Shown here: positions 1-12,151 of the stretch, piece by piece
Position numbering within the stretch: the first letter of the stretch is position 1
How the letters are laid out: each line of letters begins with the position of its first letter
Assembly (NCBI GenBank): GCA_937968065.1
Contig: CALBUD010000040.1
Location: 1-12,151 of the forward strand
Length of the DNA stretch: 12,151 nucleotides
Direction: 5' to 3'
Source of the DNA: Candidatus Iainarchaeum sp.
Lineage (GTDB): Archaea; Iainarchaeota; Iainarchaeia; Iainarchaeales; CSSED10-239
Notes under the pieces: generated by a model
What the model was told of the DNA's origin: nothing
Seen by the model: the letters and a program-made list of their open reading frames with translations, nothing else
Database searches by the model: none
Translations under genes and position numbers: made by a program

Positions 1-46
1 CGAGATCACTGTGTGACTGGAGTTCAGACGTGTGCTCTTCCGATCT
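1..46. other. Synthetic Illumina TruSeq-type indexed adapter (contamination at contig end)
   Basis: 1-6 is CGAGAT. 7-12 is CACTGT, whose reverse complement ACAGTG is a 6-nt index (TruSeq index 5 as I recall it). 13-46 is GTGACTGGAGTTCAGACGTGTGCTCTTCCGATCT, the read-2 adapter stem. Composition switches abruptly to AT-rich DNA at 47. Confidence 0.95.
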
Positions 47-574
47 TATTTTGAAAAAGATGAAGAAGAAAAACAAAAACTAATTAATCCTATAGATTCT
101 AAGATAATTGCTATTGGTCTTAAAGAAAAAGATAAAGAATCTGTTATTTTTATGGGAGAAGATGAAAAAAAAATTTTAGAAGATTTTTGGAAATATTATT
201 CTAATTTTAAAACAAATAATATTTTTTCAAAAATAGTTGGTTTTAATATTAAAAGTTTTGATATGTCTTTTTTAATATCTAGAAGTTTTATTAATAAAGT
301 TAAAATTAAACCTTTTAGTTTAAAAGAAATAATGGATTTAAGAGAATATATAACTTGTTTTAGATATGGAAAGAGCAGAGGTACTTTAAAAGAGTTTGGA
401 GAAGCTGTTGGTGTATCTTTAATAGATGATATGGATGGATCTATGGTTGCTGAGCTTTGTTATAAAAAAGATTATGCCTTAATTGAAAAATATCTTTTAA
501 AAGACATGGAACTTACAGAAAAAGTTCATGATGTTTTAATGGAACTTGACATTGATAAGATTAAACAATATTAA
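47..574 (+). CDS. 3'-5' exonuclease, RNase H-like fold, PolB-exonuclease-related family; 5'-truncated at the contig end
   Basis: The open frame runs out of the adapter (track ORF 32..574; codons 32-46 are adapter-encoded). It has an Exo II-like GFNIKSFDMSFL and an Exo III-like YLLKDMELT. The Exo I motif is absent because the N-terminus is missing. TAA stop at 572-574. Confidence 0.55.
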   Translation, partial: YFEKDEEEKQKLINPIDSKIIAIGLKEKDKESVIFMGEDEKKILEDFWKYYSNFKTNNIFSKIVGFNIKSFDMSFLISRSFINKVKIKPFSLKEIMDLREYITCFRYGKSRGTLKEFGEAVGVSLIDDMDGSMVAELCYKKDYALIEKYLLKDMELTEKVHDVLMELDIDKIKQY

Positions 575-581
575 TTTTTTT
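575..581 (+). terminator. Oligo-T tract (T7) directly after the stop codon; candidate archaeal intrinsic termination signal
   Basis: A T7 run immediately follows TAA 572-574. Archaeal RNA polymerase terminates at oligo-T tracts. Confidence 0.3.
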
Positions 582-645
582 AAAAAATAAAAAGTTCCTC
601 TTTCTTTATCTTTAAATACTTTTCTCTTTATATAATTATTTATGA

Positions 646-882
646 GCGACAAATGGTGTTGGGTTTACAACAAAGAAACCTTTAACAAAAACTTCAAAAA
701 AAATATTAACTGAATTGTCTAGTCGTGAGTCTATATCTATTTTTGAATTAAATGAATTAGTGAATATATCAAACAGATGTATTAGAAATAATTTAAGAAA
801 GCTTATTAATAACAACCTAATAAGTATAGTTATAGATACAGATGATTTAAGAAAGAAGCTTGTTAAACTTAAAAAAATTTAG
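646..882 (+). CDS. Small winged-helix DNA-binding protein (MarR/ArsR/TrmB-like); start codon unresolved, possibly frameshifted
   Basis: There are 78 stop-free codons in very AT-rich DNA: ATNGVGFTTKKPLTKTSKKILTELSSRESISIFELNELVNISNRCIRNNLRKLINNNLISIVIDTDDLRKKLVKLKKI. This is a typical wHTH pattern (helix, turn, recognition helix, then wing). There is no in-frame ATG/GTG/TTG before the HTH. The only nearby ATG (642-644) is one frame off and overlaps the in-frame TGA at 643-645. A TTTAAATA box lies at 611-618. TAG stop at 880-882. Confidence 0.5.
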   Translation, partial: ATNGVGFTTKKPLTKTSKKILTELSSRESISIFELNELVNISNRCIRNNLRKLINNNLISIVIDTDDLRKKLVKLKKI

Positions 883-891
883 TTTTTTTTT
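883..891 (+). terminator. Oligo-T tract (T9) after the wHTH ORF
   Basis: A T9 run starts right after TAG 880-882. Confidence 0.3.
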
Positions 892-906
892 AAAAAGAAA
901 AAATCT

Positions 907-977
907 CCCCTCATGGTGTAATGGTAGCACAAAGGGCTGTAGACCTTTTAGAATCGGTTCAAATTCGGTTGAGGGGA
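907..977 (+). tRNA. tRNA-Tyr (anticodon GTA), archaeal type
   Basis: Hand-folded 71-nt cloverleaf. Acceptor 907-913 CCCCTCA pairs with 970-976 TGAGGGG. U8 is at 914. D stem is 916-919/927-930 with D loop AATGGTA. Anticodon stem is 932-936/944-948 with loop CTGTAGA (937-943; anticodon GTA at 939-941). The variable region is 4 nt. T stem is 953-957/965-969 with loop TTCAAAT. The discriminator is A977 and CCA is not encoded. C1-G72, A73 and the short variable arm are archaeal/eukaryal tRNA-Tyr features. Confidence 0.85.
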
Positions 978-1056
978 CCTTTTAATTATTTTATAACTTT
1001 ATAGAAAATTTTAAAAACTCTATCTTCTATAATAATGTTATAAATTAAGAAAAAAT

Positions 1057-1695
1057 ATGATTAAAGATTTAAAAAACAATTTAATTTTGAAAAAATGTTA
1101 TAAAAAACCTAACTTTGTAGATGATAAGTTTATTTTTAAATCTAAAAAATATCTTTTAAAAAATGATTTAGATTCTTTTTTTAGATTAGTTAAAATTAAT
1201 CTTGAAAGTAAAAAAGTATATTCAAACAAGTTATTTCATCTTTATTTCTATTTATTATATCTTTTAGAAAAAAAAGAAAAAACAAATTCTTTTTTAAAAC
1301 ATTTCGTTTATTCTAAATTAAATTATAAAATGCATTTCCTTTTTGAAAACATAATAGATAAAGAAATTTATTTATTTTTAAAGAAAAATCATAAACTTTT
1401 TAAAGATATTAAAGGAAAAAAATATTTAATTGTAAAAATTGATAATGATTTTATAAAATTAAAAGAAATGTTTTATAAGTTTGATGACTTTAATGAAAAA
1501 ACCATAAAAAAAGATGTTAAAGAATTAATCTCTTTTTTAAAAAAATTAATTAAATCAAAGAAGATTACAAAAAAAATAGCAAACAGTTTACTTAATTTAA
1601 CTTATTTAGATATTTCTGATTCTTTTGATCATTATAAAAACAAAGATAAAATAAATTTAGATAAGTTTATTAAAAAAAAAGATTTTAAAATTTAA
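1057..1695 (+). CDS. Hypothetical protein, extremely Lys/Asn/Phe-rich, predicted mostly helical
   Basis: A 212-codon stop-free frame in DNA of about 12% G+C cannot be chance. It has an ATG start and a TAA stop. I recognise no motif. Confidence 0.5.
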   Translation: MIKDLKNNLILKKCYKKPNFVDDKFIFKSKKYLLKNDLDSFFRLVKINLESKKVYSNKLFHLYFYLLYLLEKKEKTNSFLKHFVYSKLNYKMHFLFENIIDKEIYLFLKKNHKLFKDIKGKKYLIVKIDNDFIKLKEMFYKFDDFNEKTIKKDVKELISFLKKLIKSKKITKKIANSLLNLTYLDISDSFDHYKNKDKINLDKFIKKKDFKI

Positions 1696-1785
1696 ATTTT
1701 TTAACTAAAATTAAATAAAAAAATTTTTAATGAAAAAATAATTTTTTTCTTACCCTTTTTAAACCTTTTTCTTCATATATTATAT

Positions 1786-1801
1786 ATGATGTTAATATCA
1801 T
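1786..1801. promoter_or_regulatory. Imperfect palindrome ATGAT-GTTAAT-ATCAT upstream of sod; possible Fur/PerR-like operator
   Basis: TGATGTT/AATATCA forms a 7-0-7 inverted repeat with one mismatch. The half-sites resemble Fur-family TGATAAT. It lies about 60 nt upstream of the sod ATG and upstream of the TATA-like TATTATATAAAAC at 1824-1836. Confidence 0.25.
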
Positions 1802-1858
1802 ATTTACTTAATCTTTTTATTACTTATTATATAAAACTTGAAAGGAGTTGATTTACTT

Positions 1859-2482
1859 ATGGATCAAGAAAAAAATATTAATCAATTTGGAGAACTTCCT
1901 TATTCATACGATGCTTTAGAGCTATTTATAGATAAAGAAACAATGAGTGTACATCATACAAAGCATCATAGAGCCTACTATGATAATTTTTTAAAAGCAA
2001 TTACTGGAACTTCTTTTGAAAACAAAGCAGTTACTGAAATTTTAAAAGATCTTTCTCTTTTACCAGAAGATAAAAAACAAGCAATCATTAATAATGGTGG
2101 TGGGTATTTTAATCATAATTTCTTTTGGGATATAATGACTCCTTCATCTACAAAAAAACCATTAGAAAATCTAGAAAAAGAGATTATAGCTTCTTTTGAA
2201 AGTTTTGAAAATTTTAAAGAAAAATTTAAAGAAAAAGCATTAACTTTATTTGGATCAGGTTGGGTATGGCTTGTTTTAAACAAAGAAAGAAAATTAGAAA
2301 TTATTCAAACCAAAAATCAAGATTCAGCTATATCTTTAGGTTTAAAACCAATTTTAGCTTTAGATGTTTGGGAGCATGCATATTATCTTAAATATCAAAA
2401 CAAAAGAGCTGATTATGTTGATGCTTTCTGGAATGTTGTAAATTGGAAACAAGCAGAATATCTTTTTAATAGTTATTTATAA
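1859..2482 (+). CDS. sod: Fe/Mn-family superoxide dismutase
   Basis: Signatures are LPYSYDALE, HHTKHHRAYYDNF, FNHNFFW, GSGWVWL and DVWEHAYYLKYQNKRADYV, which include the His/His/Asp/His metal ligands. ATG 1859 is preferred over the track's TTG 1838 because AGGAG (1843-1847) sits 11 nt upstream of it. Confidence 0.93.
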   Translation: MDQEKNINQFGELPYSYDALELFIDKETMSVHHTKHHRAYYDNFLKAITGTSFENKAVTEILKDLSLLPEDKKQAIINNGGGYFNHNFFWDIMTPSSTKKPLENLEKEIIASFESFENFKEKFKEKALTLFGSGWVWLVLNKERKLEIIQTKNQDSAISLGLKPILALDVWEHAYYLKYQNKRADYVDAFWNVVNWKQAEYLFNSYL

Positions 2483-2609
2483 CTATTTTTTTAATAATTT
2501 TTTTCTTATTTTCTATTTTCTTCTCGGCCAAGATGCCTCTCTCTTTCCAAAACAAATATATAAATTAAAGTAGCTAATATATATAAGTATTATTAAAAAA
2601 AAGAAAAAT

Positions 2610-4538
2610 ATGAATAAATTCAAAGTAGTTTCAAAATTTTCTCCAGCAGGAGATCAGGGAAAAGCAATTGAAGAACTATCAGACTCTTTAAAAAAAGGAA
2701 ATAAATTACAAACTCTTAAAGGTATAACTGCAAGTGGAAAAACCTTTGTTGTTTCAAAGATTATAGAACAACATCAAAAACCAACCCTTGTTCTAGCACA
2801 TAACAAAACCTTAGCAGCACAGCTTTATAGAGAACTAAAAGAATTCTTTCCAAATAATAAAGTTGAATATTTTGTATCATATTATGATTATTATCAACCA
2901 GAAAGCTATGTTCCTCAAAGAGATTTATATATTGAAAAAAACACAAAAATTAATGAAAAAATAGAAGAATTAAGACTTTCTGCAACAGCATCAATTGCTT
3001 CAAGAGAAGACACTATTGTTGTTGCTTCTGTTTCATGTATTTATTCTTTAGGAAATCCAGAAAAATTTAAAGAAATGGGTTTTGAATTATTTGTTGGACA
3101 AAATATTTTAAGACAAGATATTTTAGAAAAACTTGTTAACATACAATATGAAAGAAACGATATGGAGCTTTCACAAGGAAAGTTTAGAGTTAAAGGAGAT
3201 GTTATTGATCTTATTTTAGGATATTCTCAAAATATTATAAGAATAGAACTTTTTGGAAAAAAAATAGATAGAATAACAGAGATTGATAAGATCACTGGTC
3301 AAGTATTATCAAAAATAAATAAACTATATGTTTTTCCAGCAAAACACTTTGTTGTTGATCAGACAACAAAAGAAAAAGCTTTAGAATCTATTGAAAAAGA
3401 GCTTAATGAAGTTTTGCCAAAAATGAATGTTTTAGAAGCACAAAGATTAAAACAAAGAACAATGTATGATTTAGAGATGATAAGAGAAGCAGGATACTGT
3501 TCTGGTATTGAAAATTATTCAAGACATTTTGATGGAAGAAAGAAAGGAGAAAGAGCATACACATTAATTGATTATTTTCCAAAAGATTTTCTTTTAGTTA
3601 TTGATGAAAGTCATCAAACTTTACCACAACTTAGAGCTATGTATGCTGGAGATTTTTCAAGAAAAAAAAATTTAATTGATTATGGTTTTCGTCTTCCTTC
3701 AGCATATGATAATAGACCTTTAAAATTTATAGAATTTGAAAAAATTTTCATGAATAAAGTTATTTTTGTTTCAGCAACTCCTGGTGATTATGAACTTTCT
3801 AAATCTAAAAAAATATCAGAGCTTATTATTAGACCAACATGCTTAGTTGATCCTTTAATAGAATTGCAAAAATCAGAAGGACAAGTAAATCATTTAATAA
3901 AAAATATTAATGAAACAACTAAAAAAGGATTTAGAACTCTTGTAACAACTTTAACAAAAAAACTTGCTGAAGAAATATCAGAATATTTTGCAGAACAAAA
4001 TATAAAAACAAGATATTTACATTCAGAGATTAATACTTTAGAAAGAACAGAGATTATAAGAGAATTACGTTTAGGAAAATTTGATTGTCTTGTTGGTATT
4101 AATCTTTTAAGAGAGGGTCTTGATATTCCTGAAGTTGGTTTAATTGGTATTTTAGATGCTGATAAAGAAGGTTTTTTAAGAGATCAAAGAAGTCTAATAC
4201 AAATTATTGGAAGAGCTGCAAGAAATAAAGATTCAAAAGTTATTCTTTATGCTGATAGAATTACAGATTCAATTAAAAAAGCAGTTGATGAGACAGAAAG
4301 AAGAAGAAATATACAACTTGCTTATAATAAAAAGAATAATATTAATCCTAAGACAATAGTTAAACCAATTGAAGAAAAACATACAGAAATTAAAGATGTT
4401 AAATCTATTCCTAAAAAAGATATTTCAAGAATGCTTGTAGAGCTTGAAAAAGAAATGAGAAAAGCTTCAGATAATCTTGATTTTGAAACAGCTATTACTT
4501 TAAGAGATAAAATAAATCTTTTAAAGACAAGAAAATAA
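2610..4538 (+). CDS. uvrB: Excinuclease ABC subunit B (UvrB)
   Basis: Signatures are [14 protein letters not shown], Walker [48 protein letters not shown] (almost identical to bacterial UvrB), DESH box VIDESHQT, helicase motif [11 protein letters not shown], and a C-terminal UVR domain [12 protein letters not shown]. Confidence 0.95.
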
Positions 4539-4548
4539 AGGTTTTAAA

Positions 4549-4574
4549 AGGTTCAATTCCCGTCAGAAGCTTTT
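4549..4574 (+). repeat. tRNA 3'-end-like direct repeat, copy 1 (AGGTTCAATTCCCGTCAGAAGCTTTT)
   Basis: Identical to copy 3 over 26 nt. It starts 10 nt after the uvrB stop codon. It contains a T-loop-like GGTTCAATTCC, an acceptor-3'-strand-like CAGAAGC, and a T-run. Confidence 0.85.
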
Positions 4575-4613
4575 TAAAAAATACTCTTTGGCAGTGAGTA
4601 AATAGCACTTTTT

Positions 4614-4632
4614 TTCCTTTTGTAAAAAGGAA
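4614..4632. promoter_or_regulatory. Perfect 8-bp inverted repeat TTCCTTTT-GTA-AAAAGGAA upstream of the ATPase gene
   Basis: Read directly from the sequence. It lies about 35 nt upstream of ATG 4667 and is followed by duplicated TATATACT TATA-like boxes. Confidence 0.25.
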
Positions 4633-4666
4633 TATATTTATATACTTTCCTATATACTATATTTAT

Positions 4667-5926
4667 ATGGATAAAAGCTATTTAGAAAGAATAATTTTAG
4701 ATCAGTCAGAAGATCTTAAAAAGATGGATTTAGGTTTATCTAGAGATAAACTTTTAGAATTAGATACTCATATAAAATCAAAAATAAATATAATTATAAC
4801 TGGAGTTAGAAGGTGTGGTAAATCTACTTTATTATTACAGATAATGAATAAATATTATAAAAATAAATTTTATTATTTAAGATTTGCAGATGAAAGATTG
4901 TCAAATATACAAATAGAAGATTATCAAAAAATATATGAAGTTTTCTTAGCTAATTTCAATAAAAATAATATTTTCTTTTTTGATGAAATACAAGGAAAAC
5001 CAAATTGGGATAAGTTTGTTAATAGATTATATGAAACAGGAAATAAATTTTATATAACGGGATCTAATTCAGAACTTTTAAGTAAAGAAATATCTACACA
5101 TCTAACTGGTAGGCATTTAGATATAGAATTATATCCTTTTTCATTTAAAGAATATTTAAATTATAAAAAAATAGATATAGATTATAGATTTACAAAAAAT
5201 TTAATAAAAATAGAAAAAGAACTAAATAATTATTTAAAAAATGGTGGCTTTCCACAAGTGGTTGTTGAAAATAATACTTTCTTACTTGAAGAAATATATG
5301 AAGATATAATTAATAAAGATGTTTTATTGAGATATAATTTAAATGATGTTTCTACTTTCAAAAAAATAGTATTATTTTTAATCTCAAATGTTTCTAAAGA
5401 ATTTTCTTATAATTCAATTAAAAAAATGTATAATTTAGGTAATTCAGATACTGTTAGAAACTATATTTCTTATTTAACAAACTCATATTTATTATTTGAA
5501 TTGCCAAAATATGATTATTCTTTAAAAAAGCAAGAAACTTATGCTAAAAAAATATATGCAATAGATACTGGACTTATAAATAAGATGGCTTTTGGTTTTT
5601 CAGAAAATATAGGTAGATTATATGAAAATTTAGTTTTTATAGAATTAAAGAGAAGAGGTAAAAATATTTATTTTTGGAAAGATAAACTTGATTATGAAGT
5701 TGATTTTATGACTGTGGAAAAAAATAAAGTGACTTCTTTAATTCAAGTAACTTATGATTTAAGTAATTTTAAGACTAAAAAAAGAGAAATTAAAGGTTTG
5801 CTTTCTGGGTTAAAAGAGTTTAAATTAAAAAAAGGAATAATAATAACTAATAATTTAGAAAAAGAAGAAACTGTAGATAATAAAATAATTAAATATATAC
5901 CTTTATGGAAATGGTTATTGGATTAA
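4667..5926 (+). CDS. AAA+ superfamily ATPase, COG1373 type (AAA_14 N-domain + DUF4143 C-domain)
   Basis: It has Walker A GVRRCGKSTLL and Walker B FFFDEIQ with the following PNW. Further matches are ITGSNSELLSKEISTHLTGRHLDIELYPFSFKEY, KIYAIDTGLIN, and the C-terminal GRLYENLVFIELKRR...DYEVDF. This pattern is characteristic of the family. Confidence 0.85.
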   Translation: MDKSYLERIILDQSEDLKKMDLGLSRDKLLELDTHIKSKINIIITGVRRCGKSTLLLQIMNKYYKNKFYYLRFADERLSNIQIEDYQKIYEVFLANFNKNNIFFFDEIQGKPNWDKFVNRLYETGNKFYITGSNSELLSKEISTHLTGRHLDIELYPFSFKEYLNYKKIDIDYRFTKNLIKIEKELNNYLKNGGFPQVVVENNTFLLEEIYEDIINKDVLLRYNLNDVSTFKKIVLFLISNVSKEFSYNSIKKMYNLGNSDTVRNYISYLTNSYLLFELPKYDYSLKKQETYAKKIYAIDTGLINKMAFGFSENIGRLYENLVFIELKRRGKNIYFWKDKLDYEVDFMTVEKNKVTSLIQVTYDLSNFKTKKREIKGLLSGLKEFKLKKGIIITNNLEKEETVDNKIIKYIPLWKWLLD

Positions 5927-5971
5927 AAAGAGTGCTTTTAACTCAAGGTTCAATTCCTGCCAGAAGCTTTT
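5926..5971 (+). repeat. tRNA 3'-end-like direct repeat, copy 2 (extended 46-nt form; 26-nt core at 5946-5971)
   Basis: The core is AGGTTCAATTCCTGCCAGAAGCTTTT, with 2 substitutions relative to copies 1 and 3. The 20 nt upstream (AAAAGAGTGCTTTTAACTCA) align with the copy 3 flank at 15/20. It starts at the last base of the ATPase stop codon. Confidence 0.85.
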
Positions 5972-6097
5972 GCTAACGCAGGTTTGGAGTCTGCAGTTTT
6001 CAGTCTGGAGAGCTTTAAACAGTTGGTTTACAGCAATCTTATTCTATAAAGTATCAAAAACAAATTCTTGCAAAGATTCCTTTAATCTTTGGAAAAT

Positions 6098-6137
6098 CTA
6101 TAAAAAGTCATACTTTTTCTATAGAAGTCATACTTTC
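6098..6137. repeat. Tandem 20/21-bp direct repeat CTATA(A/G)A(A)AGTCATACTTT, two copies
   Basis: 6098-6118 is CTATAAAAAGTCATACTTTTT and 6119-6137 is CTATAGAAGTCATACTTTC. An 8-bp inverted repeat CAAAGATT/AATCTTTG lies just upstream at 6071-6091. Confidence 0.6.
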
Positions 6138-6166
6138 TAATATTAATTCTAATATAGATAAGATAA

Positions 6167-6501
6167 ATGAGAATGATAGGTCTGTTAAACTTACAAGGTT
6201 GATTTTAAGGTACCATATCTTTTAAAAGAAGAAAAAGATATTAAAAAATATATTAAAAACATTAAAGAGAGTGAGGATGTTTTTATTGATAATAATATAA
6301 AAAAAAATTAAGGATTTTAATGATTTTAAAGAGGTAATATCTAAGTTTAATCAAGAATATAATAACACAGATGATTATCTTGTGTTATTTACAAAAGCTT
6401 TAGAGGTTAATGTTTTTAATAGTATTAAGGACGAGAATTTTAAAAGATTTATAATAGATAATGATCTTTTTAATAGGTTGAAGTATTATTGTGAAAGATG
6501 A
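6167..6501 (+). pseudogene. Possible decayed gene: three consecutive open segments in frames 2, 3 and 1
   Basis: ATG 6167..TGA 6202 gives MRMIGLLNLQG. 6204-6308 gives FKVPYLLKEEKDIKKYIKNIKESEDVFIDNNIKKN. 6301-6498 gives KKIKDFNDFKEVISKFNQEYNNTDDYLVLFTKALEVNVFNSIKDENFKRFIIDNDLFNRLKYYCER. The last two would fuse if one A were removed from the A9 run at 6299-6307. No recognisable domain. Confidence 0.3.
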
Positions 6502-6570
6502 GTTATTTTTCTAAATTATTGATTGAAAATAGTTCAGAAAGGATTTTTAAATGTTTTGTTATTCTGTATT

Positions 6571-6612
6571 TATAGCTATTGTTTTATAGCTATTGTTTTA
6601 TAGCTATTTTTA
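6571..6612. repeat. 14-bp tandem repeat TATAGCTATTGTTT x2 plus a degenerate third copy, in the promoter of the pilin-RCC1 gene
   Basis: 6571-6584 and 6585-6598 are identical. 6599-6612 is TATAGCTATTTTTA. The repeats are followed by TTTAAAATAT at 6609-6618 and ATG 6636. Confidence 0.8.
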
Positions 6613-6635
6613 AAATATTTAAAAATGTAGATTAT

Positions 6636-7577
6636 ATGATTAGAAAAACTAACTTGGATTTTGATAAAAAAAGAAAAACAAGCTCTCAACCTTTTTTAGA
6701 AAAAAATGTTGACGAAAAAAGAAAAGCAATCTCTCCATTAGTAGCAACCATTCTAATAATAGTTGTTGCTGTTGCAATAATAATGATTGTTTTAAACTGG
6801 GGAAAAGCTTTTACACAAGGAGGTCTTCAAGATGCAACAAATGTTACAAGTTTTACAACTTCTGATGCTAGTAGTTTTATTTTCAGACCAGATATTAAAG
6901 GACAAACTTTAACCTTTACTTATTCTCCACCAGCTTCTTTAAAAAGTCAAACAATAATTGTTGATAGATTTTCAGTTCTTGGTTATGAAGGAATAATAGA
7001 TATTGATCCTCCAGTAACTTTAAGAGAAGGTTTAACTGGTATACAAAATTTAGATTTATCTTCTTTAGATATTCAAGAAAGAACAATAACAATTGTTTTT
7101 TATACAACAAATAATGAAATCATTACTTTAAAAAATATTGATTTAATAAATTATGTTCCTCCAGAATATGAATATTATTTATATGGTTGGGGTTCAAATT
7201 ATTATGGGAAATTAACGTTTTTTTTAAATTTAGATGTAATATCTGCTGGTCAGGAACATTCATTAGGTATTAGAAACGGAGAGCTTTATGCTTGGGGTTA
7301 TAATCAGTATGGTCAACTTGGAGATGGCACAACCTATAATGAACTTGTTCCCACAAGAATCGGAACTGATAGTGATTGGACAATGATCTCTGCTAGTGGA
7401 AGTCATTCATTAGGTATCAGAAACGGAGAGCTTTATGCTTGGGGTGAGAATGTTTATGGTCAACTTGGAGATGGCACAACTGATGATAAACTTGTTCCCA
7501 CAAGAATTGGAACTGATAGTGATTGGACAATAGTCTCTGCTGGTTATGAACATTCATTTGGTTTAAAAAATAGTTGA
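6636..7577 (+). CDS. Secreted/surface protein: archaeal class III (type IV pilin-like) signal peptide + unknown middle domain + C-terminal RCC1-type repeats
   Basis: KRKA|ISPLVATILIIVVAVAIIMIVLNW matches the archaeal pilin N-terminal pattern: a basic residue, then A/G, then xSPxxxTxLLI and a hydrophobic helix. The C-terminus carries RCC1 blade signatures HSLGIRNGELYAWGxNxYGQLGDGTT..LVPTRIG twice, plus a degenerate GWGSNYYGKL. ATG 6636 is preferred over the track's TTG 6579, which lies inside the tandem repeat. TGA stop at 7575-7577. Confidence 0.75.
   Translation: MIRKTNLDFDKKRKTSSQPFLEKNVDEKRKAISPLVATILIIVVAVAIIMIVLNWGKAFTQGGLQDATNVTSFTTSDASSFIFRPDIKGQTLTFTYSPPASLKSQTIIVDRFSVLGYEGIIDIDPPVTLREGLTGIQNLDLSSLDIQERTITIVFYTTNNEIITLKNIDLINYVPPEYEYYLYGWGSNYYGKLTFFLNLDVISAGQEHSLGIRNGELYAWGYNQYGQLGDGTTYNELVPTRIGTDSDWTMISASGSHSLGIRNGELYAWGENVYGQLGDGTTDDKLVPTRIGTDSDWTIVSAGYEHSFGLKNS
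7257..7577 (+). repeat. 147-bp (49-codon) in-frame tandem repeat encoding RCC1 blades: two full units plus a 27-nt decayed third
   Basis: Units at 7257-7403 and 7404-7550 differ at about 20 positions by hand alignment and share identical runs of 19-27 nt. The third unit (7551-) decays, and its TGA stop aligns with the GAG codon of NGELYAWG. Confidence 0.85.
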
Positions 7578-7660
7578 ATAAAATTTAAAAAACTTGATAA
7601 AAACAAGAAGATTTTTGCATTCTATTACCTTGGATATAGATATATATTTCTACTTGTTAT

Positions 7661-7706
7661 AAAAGAACGCTTTTCACTTTAGGTTCAATTCCCGTCAGAA
7701 GCTTTT
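7661..7706 (+). repeat. tRNA 3'-end-like direct repeat, copy 3 (extended 46-nt form; 26-nt core at 7681-7706)
   Basis: The core is identical to copy 1. The extended part AAAAGAACGCTTTTCACTTT aligns with copy 2. It lies between convergent genes, 103 nt after the RCC1-gene stop and 15 nt before the stop of the minus-strand gene. Confidence 0.85.
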
Positions 7707-7721
7707 ATTATTTTTTAAAAA

Positions 7722-8441
7722 TTATTTTGCTTCTGGAACAAAATTAAAATTTTTATCAAGTCTATATCCATTTTCAGGAGTAAAATAAACTTCAAATCCA
7801 AATTTTTTTAAAATATTTAAAACATTAAAAACAGTTTTTTTATTTTTTTTATTCCCTTCCATAGTGGATGCTTTATGCACTAAAAACCTTGTAATTTTTT
7901 TTCTTGTTTCTAACAAGCTTTTATTTTCTGAAATTGATTTTTGAATTTCTTGTGTTATATTTTTCATAAAAACATGATTTATCTTTATTGTTGTATACCC
8001 TAAAACTTTTTTTTCAGGATTTACAATTGCAATTACTTCATATCCATGTTTTGTTTTAGAATATTTAAAAATACCATCTATAAAAAGAAAAAGATCAGGA
8101 ATTGCATTTCCTTTGTTAAATTTTGGATTTTTAGAAGAATCTTGTAATTTAAAATAAAATAAACTTCCTTTTTGTCTAATATCTTTAGTTCTTTTTTTAG
8201 ATAATCTTTTTTCTAAAATATTTTTAAAAATTACATCATATCTTTTATTATTTATAACACTAAAAGAATTTAATCTATCTCCAGAAACATTAATTGCTTT
8301 TTCTCCAGGATGTTTATAAAAAGTTATTTTTCTAAGATTATTTATATCAATTTTTTTTAAACTATCAATTTCTGAAAGATATTTATCTCTTCCAATTTTT
8401 GGTTTTGGAATTATTCTTGGTATTATTTTTTTTGGTTTCAT
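7722..8441 (-). CDS. Hypothetical basic protein, paralog A of a tandem pair (possible inactive MPN-like member)
   Basis: 239 aa. Its ATG overlaps the upstream paralog's TGA (ATGA at 8438-8441). It shares with paralog B the N-terminal MKP..KIG, then PG, (A/I)(I/L)P, YxxIxxVxP....GYTTI(K/R)IN, and the C-terminal G(F/M)E(V/I)xFTPExGYRLDxxFN. Where paralog B has HTH and PSLSD, this protein has FYF and PDLFL. Confidence 0.6.
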   Translation of the reverse strand: MKPKKIIPRIIPKPKIGRDKYLSEIDSLKKIDINNLRKITFYKHPGEKAINVSGDRLNSFSVINNKRYDVIFKNILEKRLSKKRTKDIRQKGSLFYFKLQDSSKNPKFNKGNAIPDLFLFIDGIFKYSKTKHGYEVIAIVNPEKKVLGYTTIKINHVFMKNITQEIQKSISENKSLLETRKKITRFLVHKASTMEGNKKNKKTVFNVLNILKKFGFEVYFTPENGYRLDKNFNFVPEAK

Positions 8442-9061
8442 TTTTCTCTTATATAATTAAATCTATTATCTAATCTATAACCTGTTTCAGGAGTAAAAAC
8501 AATTTCCATGCCAAGACTTGGTAGCATTTCAAAAAGATGTATTTTATATTCTGCATTTTTTTTATTTTTAGAATTTAAATAAGGATTTATTTTTTCAATA
8601 AATTGTTCTGGAGTAACTTTGATATTATTAATTCTAATTGTTGTATACCCAATAGGTCTTCCATTTTTAGGATCAATTACAGAAATTATTTGATATTTAA
8701 TTGTTCTTTTTCTATCTTTTATAAAAGAAACAATATCTGATAAAGAAGGAAGAGCAATTCCATATTCTTCTCTTTTAGAATTTCTTTTAGTTATGTGAGT
8801 GTGCAAAAGTTGTGCTCTATTTTCAAGATTTCTAATTTTTCTTCTTATATTTTCTTTTATTTTTTCATTAAGTATTCTTTCAAGCTTAGCTGTGTTTTTT
8901 CCAACATGATTTTTTTGTCTATTATTAGAAACATCATGTATTCCTTTACCTGGTACTGAAAGTAATTGTATTTCTTTATTTTTAATATCTGCATCTTTTT
9001 TTAAAACATTTTCAAATTTATTTTTACCAATTTTTGATTTTCTAAATATTACAGGTTTCAT
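8438..9061 (-). CDS. Hypothetical basic protein, paralog B of a tandem pair (possible divergent JAMM/MPN+-like metalloprotease)
   Basis: Start moved to ATG 9061 (207 aa, MKPVIFRKSKIG...), which aligns with the paralog A N-terminus. On the minus strand TTTAAAATA begins about 33 nt upstream of this ATG. The protein contains H87-T-H89, P105-S106-L-S-D109 and IISVID130-P131..GYTTIRI. Confidence 0.6.
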   Translation of the reverse strand: MKPVIFRKSKIGKNKFENVLKKDADIKNKEIQLLSVPGKGIHDVSNNRQKNHVGKNTAKLERILNEKIKENIRRKIRNLENRAQLLHTHITKRNSKREEYGIALPSLSDIVSFIKDRKRTIKYQIISVIDPKNGRPIGYTTIRINNIKVTPEQFIEKINPYLNSKNKKNAEYKIHLFEMLPSLGMEIVFTPETGYRLDNRFNYIREK

Positions 9062-9208
9062 ATATATAAAATAAGGTAAATAGTATTTTAAATGTATGAG
9101 CTTTAATGTAGATATACATAAAAAGTTTGTTTTCTTAAACCTTCTTTTTTTAAACATATTGCTTTACATTAGATATATAAACTAATTTTTTTAAAAAAGG
9201 TGTTTTTT

Positions 9209-9805
9209 ATGCTTGAAAGATATACAGTAATTGACATTGAAACAACAGGGCTTAACAGAGAGAAAGATCAAATAACTGAGATTGCTGCTTTAAGAGTTGA
9301 AGGAAATAGAATTATTGAAAAATTTGAAACATTAATAAATCCTTTAATAAAAATACCGGCTGAAATAACTCAAATAACAGGAATTACAGATCAAATGGTT
9401 AAAAAACAACCAACAATTTCAGAAGTTTTACCAAAGTTTAAAGAATTTATAAAAAACGATATTTTAGTTGCACATAATTCTATTTTTGATATTGGTTTTT
9501 TAAATTATAATTATTCTAAATATTATAATAAACCTTTAGAAAATAAAGATTTATGTACTTTAAATCTTGCAAAAAAATTAGTTTCTTCAATACCAAGTTA
9601 TAGATTATCTTCTTTATGTAATTATTTTGATATAAAAAATGATAATTATCATAGAGCAATGGCAGATGTTTATGCTACAACAAAACTATTTTTAAAATTT
9701 CAAGCAATTATGCATAATAATGGTTTAAAAGAAGATCAAGATATTTTAAAATTCTATCAAGATCCTTTAGCAAAATTAAATCTTTCTTTAACAATTTTAA
9801 TTTAA
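9209..9805 (+). CDS. DnaQ-like (DEDDh) 3'-5' exonuclease
   Basis: Exo I is VIDIETTGL, Exo II is LVAHNSIFDIGFL, and Exo III is YHRAMADVYAT (H-x4-D). ATG 9209 is preferred over GTG 9200 because AAGGTG (9197-9202) lies 6 nt upstream. It is transcribed divergently from the paralog pair. Confidence 0.85.
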   Translation: MLERYTVIDIETTGLNREKDQITEIAALRVEGNRIIEKFETLINPLIKIPAEITQITGITDQMVKKQPTISEVLPKFKEFIKNDILVAHNSIFDIGFLNYNYSKYYNKPLENKDLCTLNLAKKLVSSIPSYRLSSLCNYFDIKNDNYHRAMADVYATTKLFLKFQAIMHNNGLKEDQDILKFYQDPLAKLNLSLTILI

Positions 9806-9809
9806 TTTT

Positions 9810-10001
9810 TTATTTATTACTTAGTGGCATTATTATCCATAAGATAATATATAAAAGTAGAAAGGTTCCAAAACTTATAAATGTCAAAATAACCCATATA
9901 ATTCTTACAATTGTTGGATCAGTATTAAAATATTCTGAAAATCCTCCATAAACTCCACCTAAAACAAATTCTTTTTTACTTCTCTTTAATCATTTTTTCA
10001 T
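9810..10001 (-). CDS. PspC-domain small membrane protein; reading frame interrupted by in-frame TGA at codon 4 (or 1-nt frameshift after a second ATG)
   Basis: The minus strand reads ATG AAA AAA TGA TTA AAG AGA AGT..., giving MKK*LKRSKKEFVLGGVYGGFSEYFNTDPTIVRIIWVILTFISFGTFLLLYIILWIIMPLSNK. The part after the TGA matches the PspC domain pattern (L.RS....GV.GG.aeYf..dPt.VR...v.......lY..lw...P). There is no other in-frame start. TAA stop at 9810-9812. Confidence 0.6.
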
Positions 10002-10085
10002 ATCTTATCAATCAGTTTATAAATTTTAATAGTTATATAATATATATTAATAAGTAATATATATTTAAAAAAACTATGATTTAAT

Positions 10086-11021
10086 ATGGAATATACAAAA
10101 GATTTTTTATGGAAAAAAGATTTAAAAGTATCAGAGTTAATTAAAGCTTATGGAAATATAGGATTTCAAAGTTATGAACTTAAAAGAGCTTCTGATTTAA
10201 TTATAAAAATGAAAAAAGAGGGTGCTAAAATTTATTTTTCATTTACTTCAAACATGGTAACTTCTGGTCTTAGAGGTTTTTTTGCACAAATTATTGAAAA
10301 AAAAATGTGTGATGTTATTGTTACAACTGTAGGTTCAATTGAAGAAGATATTATGAAAGCAGATGGTGATAATTTTATTTTATCTTCTTTTTCTTCAAAT
10401 GATGAAGAATTATATGAAAGAGGAGAAAACAGAGTTGGAAATATTTTAATTACCAATGATCAATATCAAAAATTAGAAGAAAAAATTAAAACTTTACTTT
10501 TAGATATTTATAAAGACAAGAAAAGATTAACTATTTCAGAACTTTTAAGAGAGATTGGTTTAAGACTTAATGATGAATCCTCAATTCTTTATCAAGCAGC
10601 TAAAAATAATGTACCAATATTTTGTCCTGCAATAACAGACGGTTCTTTTGGTTTTCAACTTTATTTATTTAAAGATGAACATAAAGATTTTGAGATAGAT
10701 ATAATTAATGATTTTAAAAATATTATTTTTTCAACATCTCATGATGAAAAAAAAGGAATAATTGCTCTTGGTGGTGGAGTTTCAAAACATCATGTTATTT
10801 TAACTACTTTAATAAATGGTGGTGCAGATTATGCACTTTACATGACAACAGCATCTCCAAGATCAGGTAGTCTTTCTGGAGCAACAACTGATGAAGCAAA
10901 ATCATGGGGAAAAATAAAAGATAATTCTGATGCTGTAACTGTTGTTGGAGATGTTACAATAACTTTTCCTTTAGCTATGGTTTCTGCTTTAGATATTTTA
11001 TCTTTTGAAAATATAATTTAA
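10086..11021 (+). CDS. dys: Deoxyhypusine synthase
   Basis: 311 aa. Motifs are TSNMVTSGLR, CPAITDGSFG, GGGVSKHH, and the catalytic-Lys region DEAKSWGKI followed by VVGDVTITFPLA, which is colinear with eukaryotic/archaeal DHS. Confidence 0.9.
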   Translation: MEYTKDFLWKKDLKVSELIKAYGNIGFQSYELKRASDLIIKMKKEGAKIYFSFTSNMVTSGLRGFFAQIIEKKMCDVIVTTVGSIEEDIMKADGDNFILSSFSSNDEELYERGENRVGNILITNDQYQKLEEKIKTLLLDIYKDKKRLTISELLREIGLRLNDESSILYQAAKNNVPIFCPAITDGSFGFQLYLFKDEHKDFEIDIINDFKNIIFSTSHDEKKGIIALGGGVSKHHVILTTLINGGADYALYMTTASPRSGSLSGATTDEAKSWGKIKDNSDAVTVVGDVTITFPLAMVSALDILSFENII

Positions 11022-11035
11022 TTTTTTGAAAAATT

Positions 11036-12082
11036 ATGAAATCAAATGCCAAATTTATTTTTTCTAAAAAAAAAGTTTTAGAAGAATATAAAAAAATAAA
11101 TGAAATATCAGATATTGTAGCATATAGTGTAAAGTCAAATCCATATATTACAAATATTTTAGAAGAAAACACCTCTTCTAATTTTTTAATACATCATATA
11201 AATGAAATTAAAAATATAGAAGATAAAGAAAGAATATGGTTTATGCTTCATTCTCCTGATAAAGAAGAAATCTCTTTTATTTTTAAAGAAAAAATTAATA
11301 AATTTATTGTTGATAATAAAAATGATTTAGATTTTTTACTTAAAGAAATTAAAAAAGAAAATAAAAAAATAACTTTACTTTTAAGAATGAGACTTAAAGA
11401 GTATACAGTAGTTACAGGTAAATTTTTTGTATATGGTTTTTATTCAAAAGAAATAAATCTATTAATAAAAGAAATTAAAGATAATCCTTTTATTGAAAAG
11501 ATTGGTATTCATTTCCATAGAAAAACACAAAATTTATCTGAATGGTCTCTTTTAGAAGAAATTTCTTCGTCTTTATTAAAAGAAACTTTAGATTATCTAG
11601 ATTTCTTAGACATTGGTGGAGGGCTTCCTGTTGTTTATAAAAATATTAATCCAAAATCAATAGATGTTATTTATAAAAATATAAAAGAATTAAAAGAATT
11701 TTTAAATAACCAAAATATAAAATTAATAACAGAACCTGGAAGATCAATTGCAGCTCCTTCAGGAGTTTTAGAAACAACAATTAAAAATATTGTAGATGAT
11801 ACTATTTTTGTTGATGCTTCTTTATTTAATTGTTCAATGGATACTCTTATAACTCACATTAAACTTTTAGTTAAAGGAGAAGAGGATAAAGAACAAGGAA
11901 AAGCATACACAATAAAAGGATTAACTCCAGCATCAGAAGATATTTTTAGATATAAAGTTTATTTTAAAGAAGAAAATCTTCCAAAGATAGGAGATAAAAT
12001 AACTTTTTTAAATGCTGGAGCATATATTTATTATACTGATTTATTTAATCTTGAAAAACCTAAAATAGAAATTATTTATTAA
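11036..12082 (+). CDS. PLP-dependent decarboxylase, fold type III (ornithine/arginine/diaminopimelate decarboxylase family), compact and divergent
   Basis: The PLP-Lys motif is AYSVKSNP. Other matches are GIHFHRKTQ (HxH region), DIGGGLPV, EPGRSIAAP, and the C-terminal FLNAGAY. It starts 14 nt downstream of dys, so co-transcription is likely. At 348 aa it is shorter than typical family members. Confidence 0.75.
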   Translation: MKSNAKFIFSKKKVLEEYKKINEISDIVAYSVKSNPYITNILEENTSSNFLIHHINEIKNIEDKERIWFMLHSPDKEEISFIFKEKINKFIVDNKNDLDFLLKEIKKENKKITLLLRMRLKEYTVVTGKFFVYGFYSKEINLLIKEIKDNPFIEKIGIHFHRKTQNLSEWSLLEEISSSLLKETLDYLDFLDIGGGLPVVYKNINPKSIDVIYKNIKELKEFLNNQNIKLITEPGRSIAAPSGVLETTIKNIVDDTIFVDASLFNCSMDTLITHIKLLVKGEEDKEQGKAYTIKGLTPASEDIFRYKVYFKEENLPKIGDKITFLNAGAYIYYTDLFNLEKPKIEIIY

Positions 12083-12151
12083 TTATTTTAATAAAAAATA
12101 AACTTATACTTTTTAAACTATTTGTTTCATAAATATATATTATATATTAAT

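Follow-up and report, generated by a model that had tools for sequence, protein, structure and literature searches.

A tandem gene pair of Iainarchaeota predicted to encode a highly divergent JAMM/MPN+-type protein and a paralog without the catalytic site

Contig CALBUD010000040.1 of Candidatus Iainarchaeum sp. (assembly GCA_937968065.1), of which positions 1 to 12,151 were analyzed (12,151 nt, hereafter the window; G+C content ∼22%), raises the question of what kind of proteins are encoded by two overlapping, co-oriented genes of unassigned family. Both genes lie on the minus strand and are designated B (8438–9061, 207 residues) and A (7722–8441, 239 residues). A preliminary description of this DNA, made from the sequence alone, had compared B with the JAMM metalloproteases and A with their inactive partners. 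Here, it is considered reasonably likely that B is a highly divergent JAMM/MPN+ (JAB) zinc hydrolase and that A is a tandem-duplicate pseudoenzyme devoid of the site, which is probably co-translated with B and would serve as its non-catalytic partner. The JAMM/MPN proteins are, to our knowledge, the sole metalloprotease class among the deubiquitinases. Pairs of such an enzyme and an inactive MPN− partner are regarded as an elaboration of eukaryotes.

The tandem arrangement could be confirmed as it had been described. Both minus-strand open reading frames are real, the stop codon of B and the start codon of A share the ATGA at 8438–8441, which suggests translational coupling, and the two proteins are colinear paralogs (BLASTP E=1e-17, 28% identity over ∼230 columns). 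The longest open reading frame for B extends over 8438–9157 and comprises 239 residues. However, the B orthologs start at or near an internal MKP (position 9061), and no conservation is seen in the orthologs for the 32 residues that precede it, and therefore the 207-residue form is the likely product of gene B.

The JAMM motif is given as EXnHS/THX7SXXD, with the Glu located at the start of strand 2 (PMC300881). To follow the corresponding residues of B, ortholog sets of 10 B-type and 9 A-type sequences, gathered in word-indexed searches of 5.8 billion proteins, were aligned. E30 (codon at 8972–8974, minus strand) is predicted to be the general-base glutamate that holds the catalytic water. 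H87-T88-H89 (8795–8803) would supply the zinc ligands H87 (8801–8803) and H89 (8795–8797), and P105-S106-L-S-D109 (8735–8749) forms the PSxxD motif with S106 at 8744–8746 and D109 at 8735–8737. E30, H87, T88, H89, P105, S106 and D109 are invariant across the 10 B-type sequences. The C-terminal module F189-T-P-E...Y195..L197...F201-N202 (8456–8497), with strands predicted at residues 185–191, 195–197 and 203–205, also consists of invariant ortholog columns. Thus the His, Ser, Asp and Glu positions and the C-terminal FTPExGYxLD module stood up to the comparison, the module being invariant in both the A and the B families. The Asp-Pro behind the hairpin strand, which had been pointed out as an MPN feature, did not, as D130 and P131 vary among the B orthologs. 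Where the canonical motif has 7 residues between HxH and Ser, B has 16 and its orthologs have 14–18, and this counts against membership in the JAMM proteins.

To place these residues in a wider context, an exhaustive hidden Markov model search was performed with the combined profile against 1.84 billion cluster representatives. At E 1e-3 or better, only 57 proteins were found. Among the data searched, the family is confined to uncultured archaea, and all members that bear a name are labelled 'hypothetical protein [archaeon]'. Conservation in the wider family was computed on an alignment of 46 of the 57 relatives, in which H89, D109 and G138 are invariant and E30, H87, P105, S106 and Y195 are conserved to at least 90%, while the C-terminal module is conserved as RFxPxxGYxF. 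Across the family, a loop of 6 to ∼49 residues connects HxH and Ser; the canonical 7 residues are present in P0059, with 8 in P0061, 6 in P0067 and no others within one of 7. The over-long spacer of B, about which a caveat had rightly been raised, is therefore accounted for by a loop length that varies across the family. (P and L numbers denote the proteins and loci compared.)

Some members carry additional segments. One or two C-terminal transmembrane helices with the pattern ...LTGNxIxN...GLIxxFFY are predicted in P0036, P0040, P0042, P0047, P0050, P0051, P0053, P0057 and P0063, and P0035 has an N-terminal match to the twin-arginine signal (Pfam TAT_signal, E=4.4e-4). It follows that some members are probably membrane-anchored or exported. 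The signal of P0035 would be compatible with the export of a folded, cofactor-bearing protein, although this is only suggestive. The match to the 1,798-residue P0048, which was obtained through the C-terminal module, was rejected as spurious; P0048 is an unrelated repeat protein with leucine-rich repeat and immunoglobulin-like domains.

Evidence for a relation to known JAMM proteins was obtained by profile–profile alignment. As a reference, 49 PF14464 (Prok-JAB, AfJAMM-type) proteins were collected with a query that was ∼90% identical to an Archaeoglobus protein, and 20 of them were aligned. With hhalign, the family profile matched these 20 sequences at a probability of 73.7% (E=2.9e-5, score 37.4, 81 columns), and with a second family alignment the probability was 77.5% (E=1.9e-5), the alignments spanning 78–81 columns. 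As a control, 100 column-shuffled JAB alignments gave a mean score of 12.2 (standard deviation 2.3, maximum 18.0) and the reversed alignment gave 13.1. In the resulting register helix 1, the HxH (opposite HSH) and the PSxxD are aligned, and the Glu is one residue off (E22 of the AfJAMM-type sequences). The family is thus remotely homologous to Prok-JAB. Weak Pfam Prok-JAB matches were found in 2 of the 46 relatives (best E=0.018). In PADLOC searches with the family alignment, single relatives weakly matched six JAB models and BilC (E 1e-3 to 6e-2), which recalls the CBASS protein Cap3 and BilC of the Bil system. However, these matches are far below membership level, and no Cap2/E1-E2, CD-NTase or Bil genes are located nearby. 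The best PADLOC match of B was TmtA (E=1.1e-4), in a sub-region of a model of 1,538 positions. A phmmer match to UCH-L3 (E ∼0.8) was dismissed as noise.

AlphaFold2 models were calculated for B and for the compact relative P0033, with predicted local distance difference test scores of 85.3 and 92.3 and predicted template modelling scores of 0.81 and 0.83, respectively. In both models helix 1 is followed by two strands, a strand ending in HxH and a loop, and the Glu immediately precedes the first of the two strands. Then follow a helix that begins with SxxD, a beta hairpin, inserted helices and further strands with the FTPExGY module. In the B model E30 precedes strand 32–36, as would be expected for the Glu proposed in the preliminary description, the HTH ends strand 83–90 and the PSxxD is located at the N-terminus of helix 107–117. 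In AfJAMM, strands 1 and 2 flank helix 1 and strands 4 and 5 flank helix 2, with the zinc site at the loop between strand 4 and helix 2, and a disordered loop connects strands 3 and 4 (PMC300881). The predicted order of secondary-structure elements in B and P0033 matches this topology. When P0033 was compared with the PDB using Foldseek, the top match was chain 8py2_A of BRISC (E=5e-3, probability 0.95) and the matches were dominated by MPN folds, mostly Prp8 Jab1/MPN (∼17 entries) and EMC8/EMC9, with no competing fold family. Among the BFVD matches of B were entries named 26S proteasome regulatory subunit, MPN family protein, metalloprotease, RadC and JAB; the MPN-related names (proteasome regulatory subunit, ubiquitin-like protein, MPN family protein) had E values of 7e-4 to 2.4e-3.

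Combining the sequence comparisons and the models, the family can be assigned to the JAMM/MPN+ superfamily with a confidence that is good, if not complete, and with the same confidence it is regarded as a new divergent family of this known superfamily that is missed by Pfam, NCBIfam, PHROGs and PADLOC. Neither a placement of the proteins in another fold nor a lack of conservation at the His, Ser and Asp positions of the B orthologs was found. Compared with AfJAMM (PF14464; PDB 1R5X), which is likewise of archaeal origin, B has E...H-S/T-H...P-S-x-x-D in the same order and, in the model, on the same secondary-structure elements. It differs from AfJAMM in its 16-residue loop between HxH and Ser, in a basic N-terminal extension, in an extra helix predicted between strands 3 and 4 and in a modelled helical insertion ahead of the last strands, which carry the conserved FTPExGY module. 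A and B comprise ∼207–240 residues, compared with ∼120 residues in AfJAMM. By analogy with AfJAMM and Rpn11, H87, H89 and D109 of B would bind one Zn2+ and E30 would hold the catalytic water in place and deprotonate it, while S106 may stabilize the tetrahedral intermediate (oxyanion) of an amide, peptide or isopeptide bond.

None of the residues on which this proposed mechanism depends is found in A. In the A/B alignments, residues Y96-F97-K98 of A (8148–8156, minus strand) are aligned to the HTH of B, and the metal ligands are lost. Residues P115-D-L-F-L119 (8085–8099) are aligned to PSLSD, where Ser and Asp are lost and Pro alone is kept, and K38 is aligned to E30. The loss of all putative metal and catalytic residues, as it had been reported, is therefore borne out, and only the register was off by one residue, since FYF had been set against the HTH. 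The catalytic residues are absent from the whole A set (9 A-type sequences, all crown A orthologs). Judging from column conservation, A is not decaying: mean column identity is 63% in the A family as well as in the B family, and A has an invariant motif of its own, Y127-x-x-T130-x-H132-x-Y134 (YxxTxHxY). The C-terminal module FTPExGYxLDK (F220–K230, 7752–7784, minus strand) is invariant in the A-family columns and was kept despite the loss of the site. With its fold determinants and this module retained, A has the characteristics of an MPN−-type pseudoenzyme under purifying selection. As a non-catalytic partner of B it could form a heterodimer with B or act as a substrate-binding or regulatory subunit.

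The origin of the pair was examined by a locus scan with a narrower family alignment, in which only four GTDB genomes were matched. These belong to the Iainarchaeota/Diapherotrites (DPANN) and include Ca. Iainarchaeum, Ca. ainarchaeum and the complete genome of Ca. Forterrea multitransposorum (CP045477.1, 839,632 bp). B–A pairs with an overlap of 4–17 nt or a distance of 11 nt are present in the window and in L001/L006, L002, L003/L007, L004 and L008; the orthologous pairs in L001, L003/L007, L004 and L008 overlap by 14–17 nt or are separated by an 11-nt gap. In L015, L016 and L017/L018 a single active-type gene (P0022–P0024) with the JAMM residues and YxxT/RxHxY is followed by a PspC gene. 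A neighbour-joining tree separated a B clade, in which the JAMM site is kept and YxxTxHxY is lost, from an A clade with the reverse pattern, and both motif sets are retained in the single-copy forms and in P0019. In L004, the earliest-branching pair, degeneration of the second gene is no more than partial (HTQ, PSSYY). From the split between the clades and the single-copy forms with both motifs, it is concluded that the duplication is probably young and lineage-specific and was followed by complementary losses, A evidently being the product of a tandem duplication in a single lineage of Iainarchaeota (DPANN). The lone A-like protein P0018 (L005, L009) was considered as a B/A chimera and this was rejected, as its B-like residues 7–30 are also found in the single-copy outgroups and in P0021; a retained ancestral state of this N-terminus would be the simpler reading.

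Several results weigh against the assignment of B to the JAMM proteins. Scans of A and B with Pfam, NCBIfam and PHROGs gave chance-level matches only, and none of the curated JAB models (PF01398, PF14464, PF04002) matched A or B above the gathering score. No significant match was found among PDB sequences for A or B, nor for the family profile. The hhalign comparison with Prok-JAB failed for profiles built from B only, A only or A and B together, and the link to Prok-JAB therefore depends on the remote members. In the structure searches B had no PDB match at E≤1e-3 and no MPN fold among the best 50 matches, where ATV ORF273 (E=0.02) and several weak APOBEC matches were found. The MPN matches of P0033 are themselves weak (E 5e-3 to 1, none at E≤1e-3, template modelling (TM) score ∼0.3). 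In BFVD, the best matches of B were unnamed domains of phage 'minor capsid proteins' (E=4e-5, TM score 0.43–0.48), entries A0A8S5QJR6 and A0A8S5U162 among them. The APOBEC matches fit the assignment, since the JAMM fold is known to resemble cytidine deaminase (PMC300881). The phage and ATV ORF273 matches, the low TM scores of the MPN matches and the lack of a Pfam JAB match above threshold would fit a convergent origin of E...HxH...PSxxD on a non-MPN fold, perhaps that of the phage proteins or of ATV ORF273, in some other metalloprotein or in a protein that is no enzyme. Such convergence is thought quite unlikely. The alignment to Prok-JAB covers helix 1, the Glu region, HxH and PSxxD with scores far above those of the shuffled controls, the compact relative matched mostly MPN folds, and the predicted order of secondary-structure elements agrees with that of AfJAMM. 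Moreover, many effector domains are known in fusion with MuF-type minor head proteins (PMC5512222), and the phage matches may be JAB-like effector domains of this kind. A tblastn search with P0033 for the 'minor capsid protein' domain gave no match in 50,697 phage genomes. A different doubt concerns A alone, which could have a non-catalytic role of its own next to a JAMM-type B, for instance in binding the same ligand through the C-terminal module, so that the tandem arrangement would reflect a tendency to local duplication. This is a possibility to be taken seriously, if a doubtful one. Consistent with it, a degenerate A-like gene (HTA, PNLNT) stands without B between the exonuclease gene and UvrB in L005 and L009, and L019/L020 contain four tandem paralogs whose sites are all intact, and therefore tandem expansion also occurs without active/inactive pairing. 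Together with the single active-type loci, these arrangements argue against an obligate A–B complex, and pairing is not obligatory across the family. On the other hand, start/stop overlaps of 4–17 nt are conserved in at least 5 loci, which suggests coupled expression, and the complementary loss of two ancestral motif sets is what would be expected when a homo-oligomer turns into a hetero-oligomer. The four-copy array (L019 9001–12029, L020 872–3909) consists of consecutive, co-oriented genes for 227–232 residues with Glu, HTH and PSxxD intact and is located beside an FtsZ_C fragment on a distant 80-kb contig of an uncultured archaeon.

The neighbouring genes bear on what the proteins might act on. 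Gene B is separated by an A+T-rich intergenic region of 147 bp (9062–9208) from a divergent gene for an RNase_T/DnaQ-type 3'-5' exonuclease (9209–9805, plus strand; Pfam PF00929, E=3.8e-47), and the promoters of both genes are presumably located within this region. The DnaQ-like neighbour had been recognized correctly. It adjoins the pair in L001–L009, and in all close relatives the pair is divergent from the exonuclease and convergent with UvrB, gene A directly abutting UvrB in L001, L002, L005 and L009. Together with the very basic N-termini of A and B and a proposed nucleic acid-processing role of RadC JAB domains, whose fold is shared with deaminases (PMC5512222), this could indicate that the pair acts on nucleic acids or nucleotides and cooperates with the exonuclease and UvrB in DNA repair, similar to the RadC-type JAB proteins (PF04002), with which B shares a JAB-type motif, a location near DNA-repair genes and a weak BFVD match to an entry named RadC. 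Such a function is judged distinctly improbable. No RadC model and no helix-hairpin-helix (HhH) match was found for the proteins, the loci come from closely related genomes, in which synteny may be inherited, and in the window A and UvrB are set apart by 3.2 kb of unrelated cassettes. The joint conservation of the pair and the exonuclease holds among the close relatives and not beyond, as in deeper relatives the neighbours are PspC and deoxyhypusine synthase, and UvrB is absent. In the three most distant single-copy relatives of the Iainarchaeota type (L015, L016, L017/L018), deoxyhypusine synthase is the immediate divergent neighbour at 77–114 bp and heads an operon with arginine/ornithine decarboxylase and an arginase-family enzyme, the exonuclease being a few genes off (L017/L018). 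In the window (10086–11021, plus strand; Pfam PF01916, E=6.9e-102) and in close relatives, deoxyhypusine synthase is found within 1–2 kb of the pair, at a distance of ∼1 kb in the window. An enzyme tied to a hypusine/polyamine module, such as an amidohydrolase with a modified aIF5A intermediate or a polyamine conjugate as its substrate, could be imagined from this, but the clustering may likewise be an inherited gene order of small, related genomes, and the remote members (including L010, L011 and L019) share no common context and lack deoxyhypusine synthase. We also know of no biochemical precedent, which counts against such an enzyme, and it is held to be very improbable.

The active/inactive-type duplication itself resembles the eukaryotic pairs Rpn11–Rpn8, CSN5–CSN6 and BRCC36–Abraxas, in which, as predicted here for B and A, an active-type JAMM protein stands beside a paralog without the metal ligands. 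The JAMM reading of the preliminary description is retained in so far as B has the E...HxH...PSxxD site and A has lost it, while its analogy to deubiquitinase modules found no support. No Pfam family of the ThiS/MoaD/ubiquitin-like or ThiF/E1 type was detected in the window or among the called genes within 6–9 kb in L001–L005, L010, L011 and L017–L019, and thus the suggested search for ubiquitin-like or E1-like genes near the pair turned out negative in these neighbourhoods. In contrast to the eukaryotic pairs, B and A result from a recent lineage-specific tandem duplication, have no ubiquitin-like substrate, E1 or proteasome-lid context in the neighbourhoods examined and are not universally paired. 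It is unlikely that the pair is an operon-encoded, heterodimeric MPN+/MPN− isopeptidase of independent origin in a DPANN archaeon. The substrate of such an enzyme would not be canonical ubiquitin and might have a connection with the adjacent deoxyhypusine/polyamine genes or with DNA repair. If it existed, the enzyme would be a prokaryotic parallel to the architecture of the three eukaryotic pairs. Precedents for MPN modules that mediate interactions without catalysis, the role proposed for A, are Prp8 Jab1/MPN and EMC8/EMC9, which were the most frequent PDB fold matches of the P0033 model. However, these matches had E values of only 0.02–1 and TM scores of ∼0.3, sequence similarity is lacking, and the proteins belong to eukaryotic complexes.

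For the preferred reading of B as a divergent JAMM/MPN+ hydrolase and A as its non-catalytic partner, the young duplication and its single-copy outgroups can be used to test how readily pseudoenzyme partners evolve from homo-oligomeric JAMM proteins. Should A and B not interact, what remains is a new divergent JAB family, of use for annotation. The locus offers a functional lead on two 'hypothetical' genes that are conserved in Iainarchaeota with very small genomes, such as Ca. Forterrea.

Additional features were observed in the window and the compared loci. Between UvrB and gene A, two cassettes are bracketed by a direct repeat with the core GGTTCAATTCC[C/T]G[T/C]CAGAAGCTTTT, which is similar to the T-arm and acceptor 3' end of a tRNA. 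Its three copies in the window (4529–4574, 5926–5971 and 7661–7706, plus strand) compare with none expected by chance, and the same core is found on the minus strand in L003 (13038–13058) and L007 (13020–13040). No full tRNA was detected by ARAGORN or Rfam next to gene A or at the repeats, the region lacking a stable fold. The copies could represent att-like sites of cassettes that became integrated. One cassette encodes an AAA_14/DUF4143 ATPase (4667–5926) and the other an RCC1-repeat protein of 332 residues (6579–7577, plus strand) with a hydrophobic N-terminus like an archaeal pilin/class III signal (RCC1 repeats, Pfam E=6e-30); these repeats are encoded by 147-nt tandem DNA repeats with 86% identity at 7239–7532.

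Between deoxyhypusine synthase and the Orn/Arg decarboxylase, a gene for 205–218 residues without Pfam match is located in L001 (4384–5001), L003 (4395–5024) and L017 (4280–4936). It is missing from the window at 11021–11036, where the gap between the two genes is 14 bp, and in L009 an open reading frame of 122 residues is found at this place. The contig of L010 carries a PhageMetallopep (PF18894) gene at 5524–5901, divergent from the P0033 gene, and most of its other genes are without Pfam match; it may represent a mobile or viral element. At the other end of the window, an open reading frame for a PolB-exonuclease-like 3'-5' exonuclease (32–574, plus strand; DNA_pol_B_exo2, E=3.4e-9) is followed by tRNA-Tyr (GTA) at 907–979 on the plus strand, so that two stand-alone exonuclease genes are present within 12 kb.

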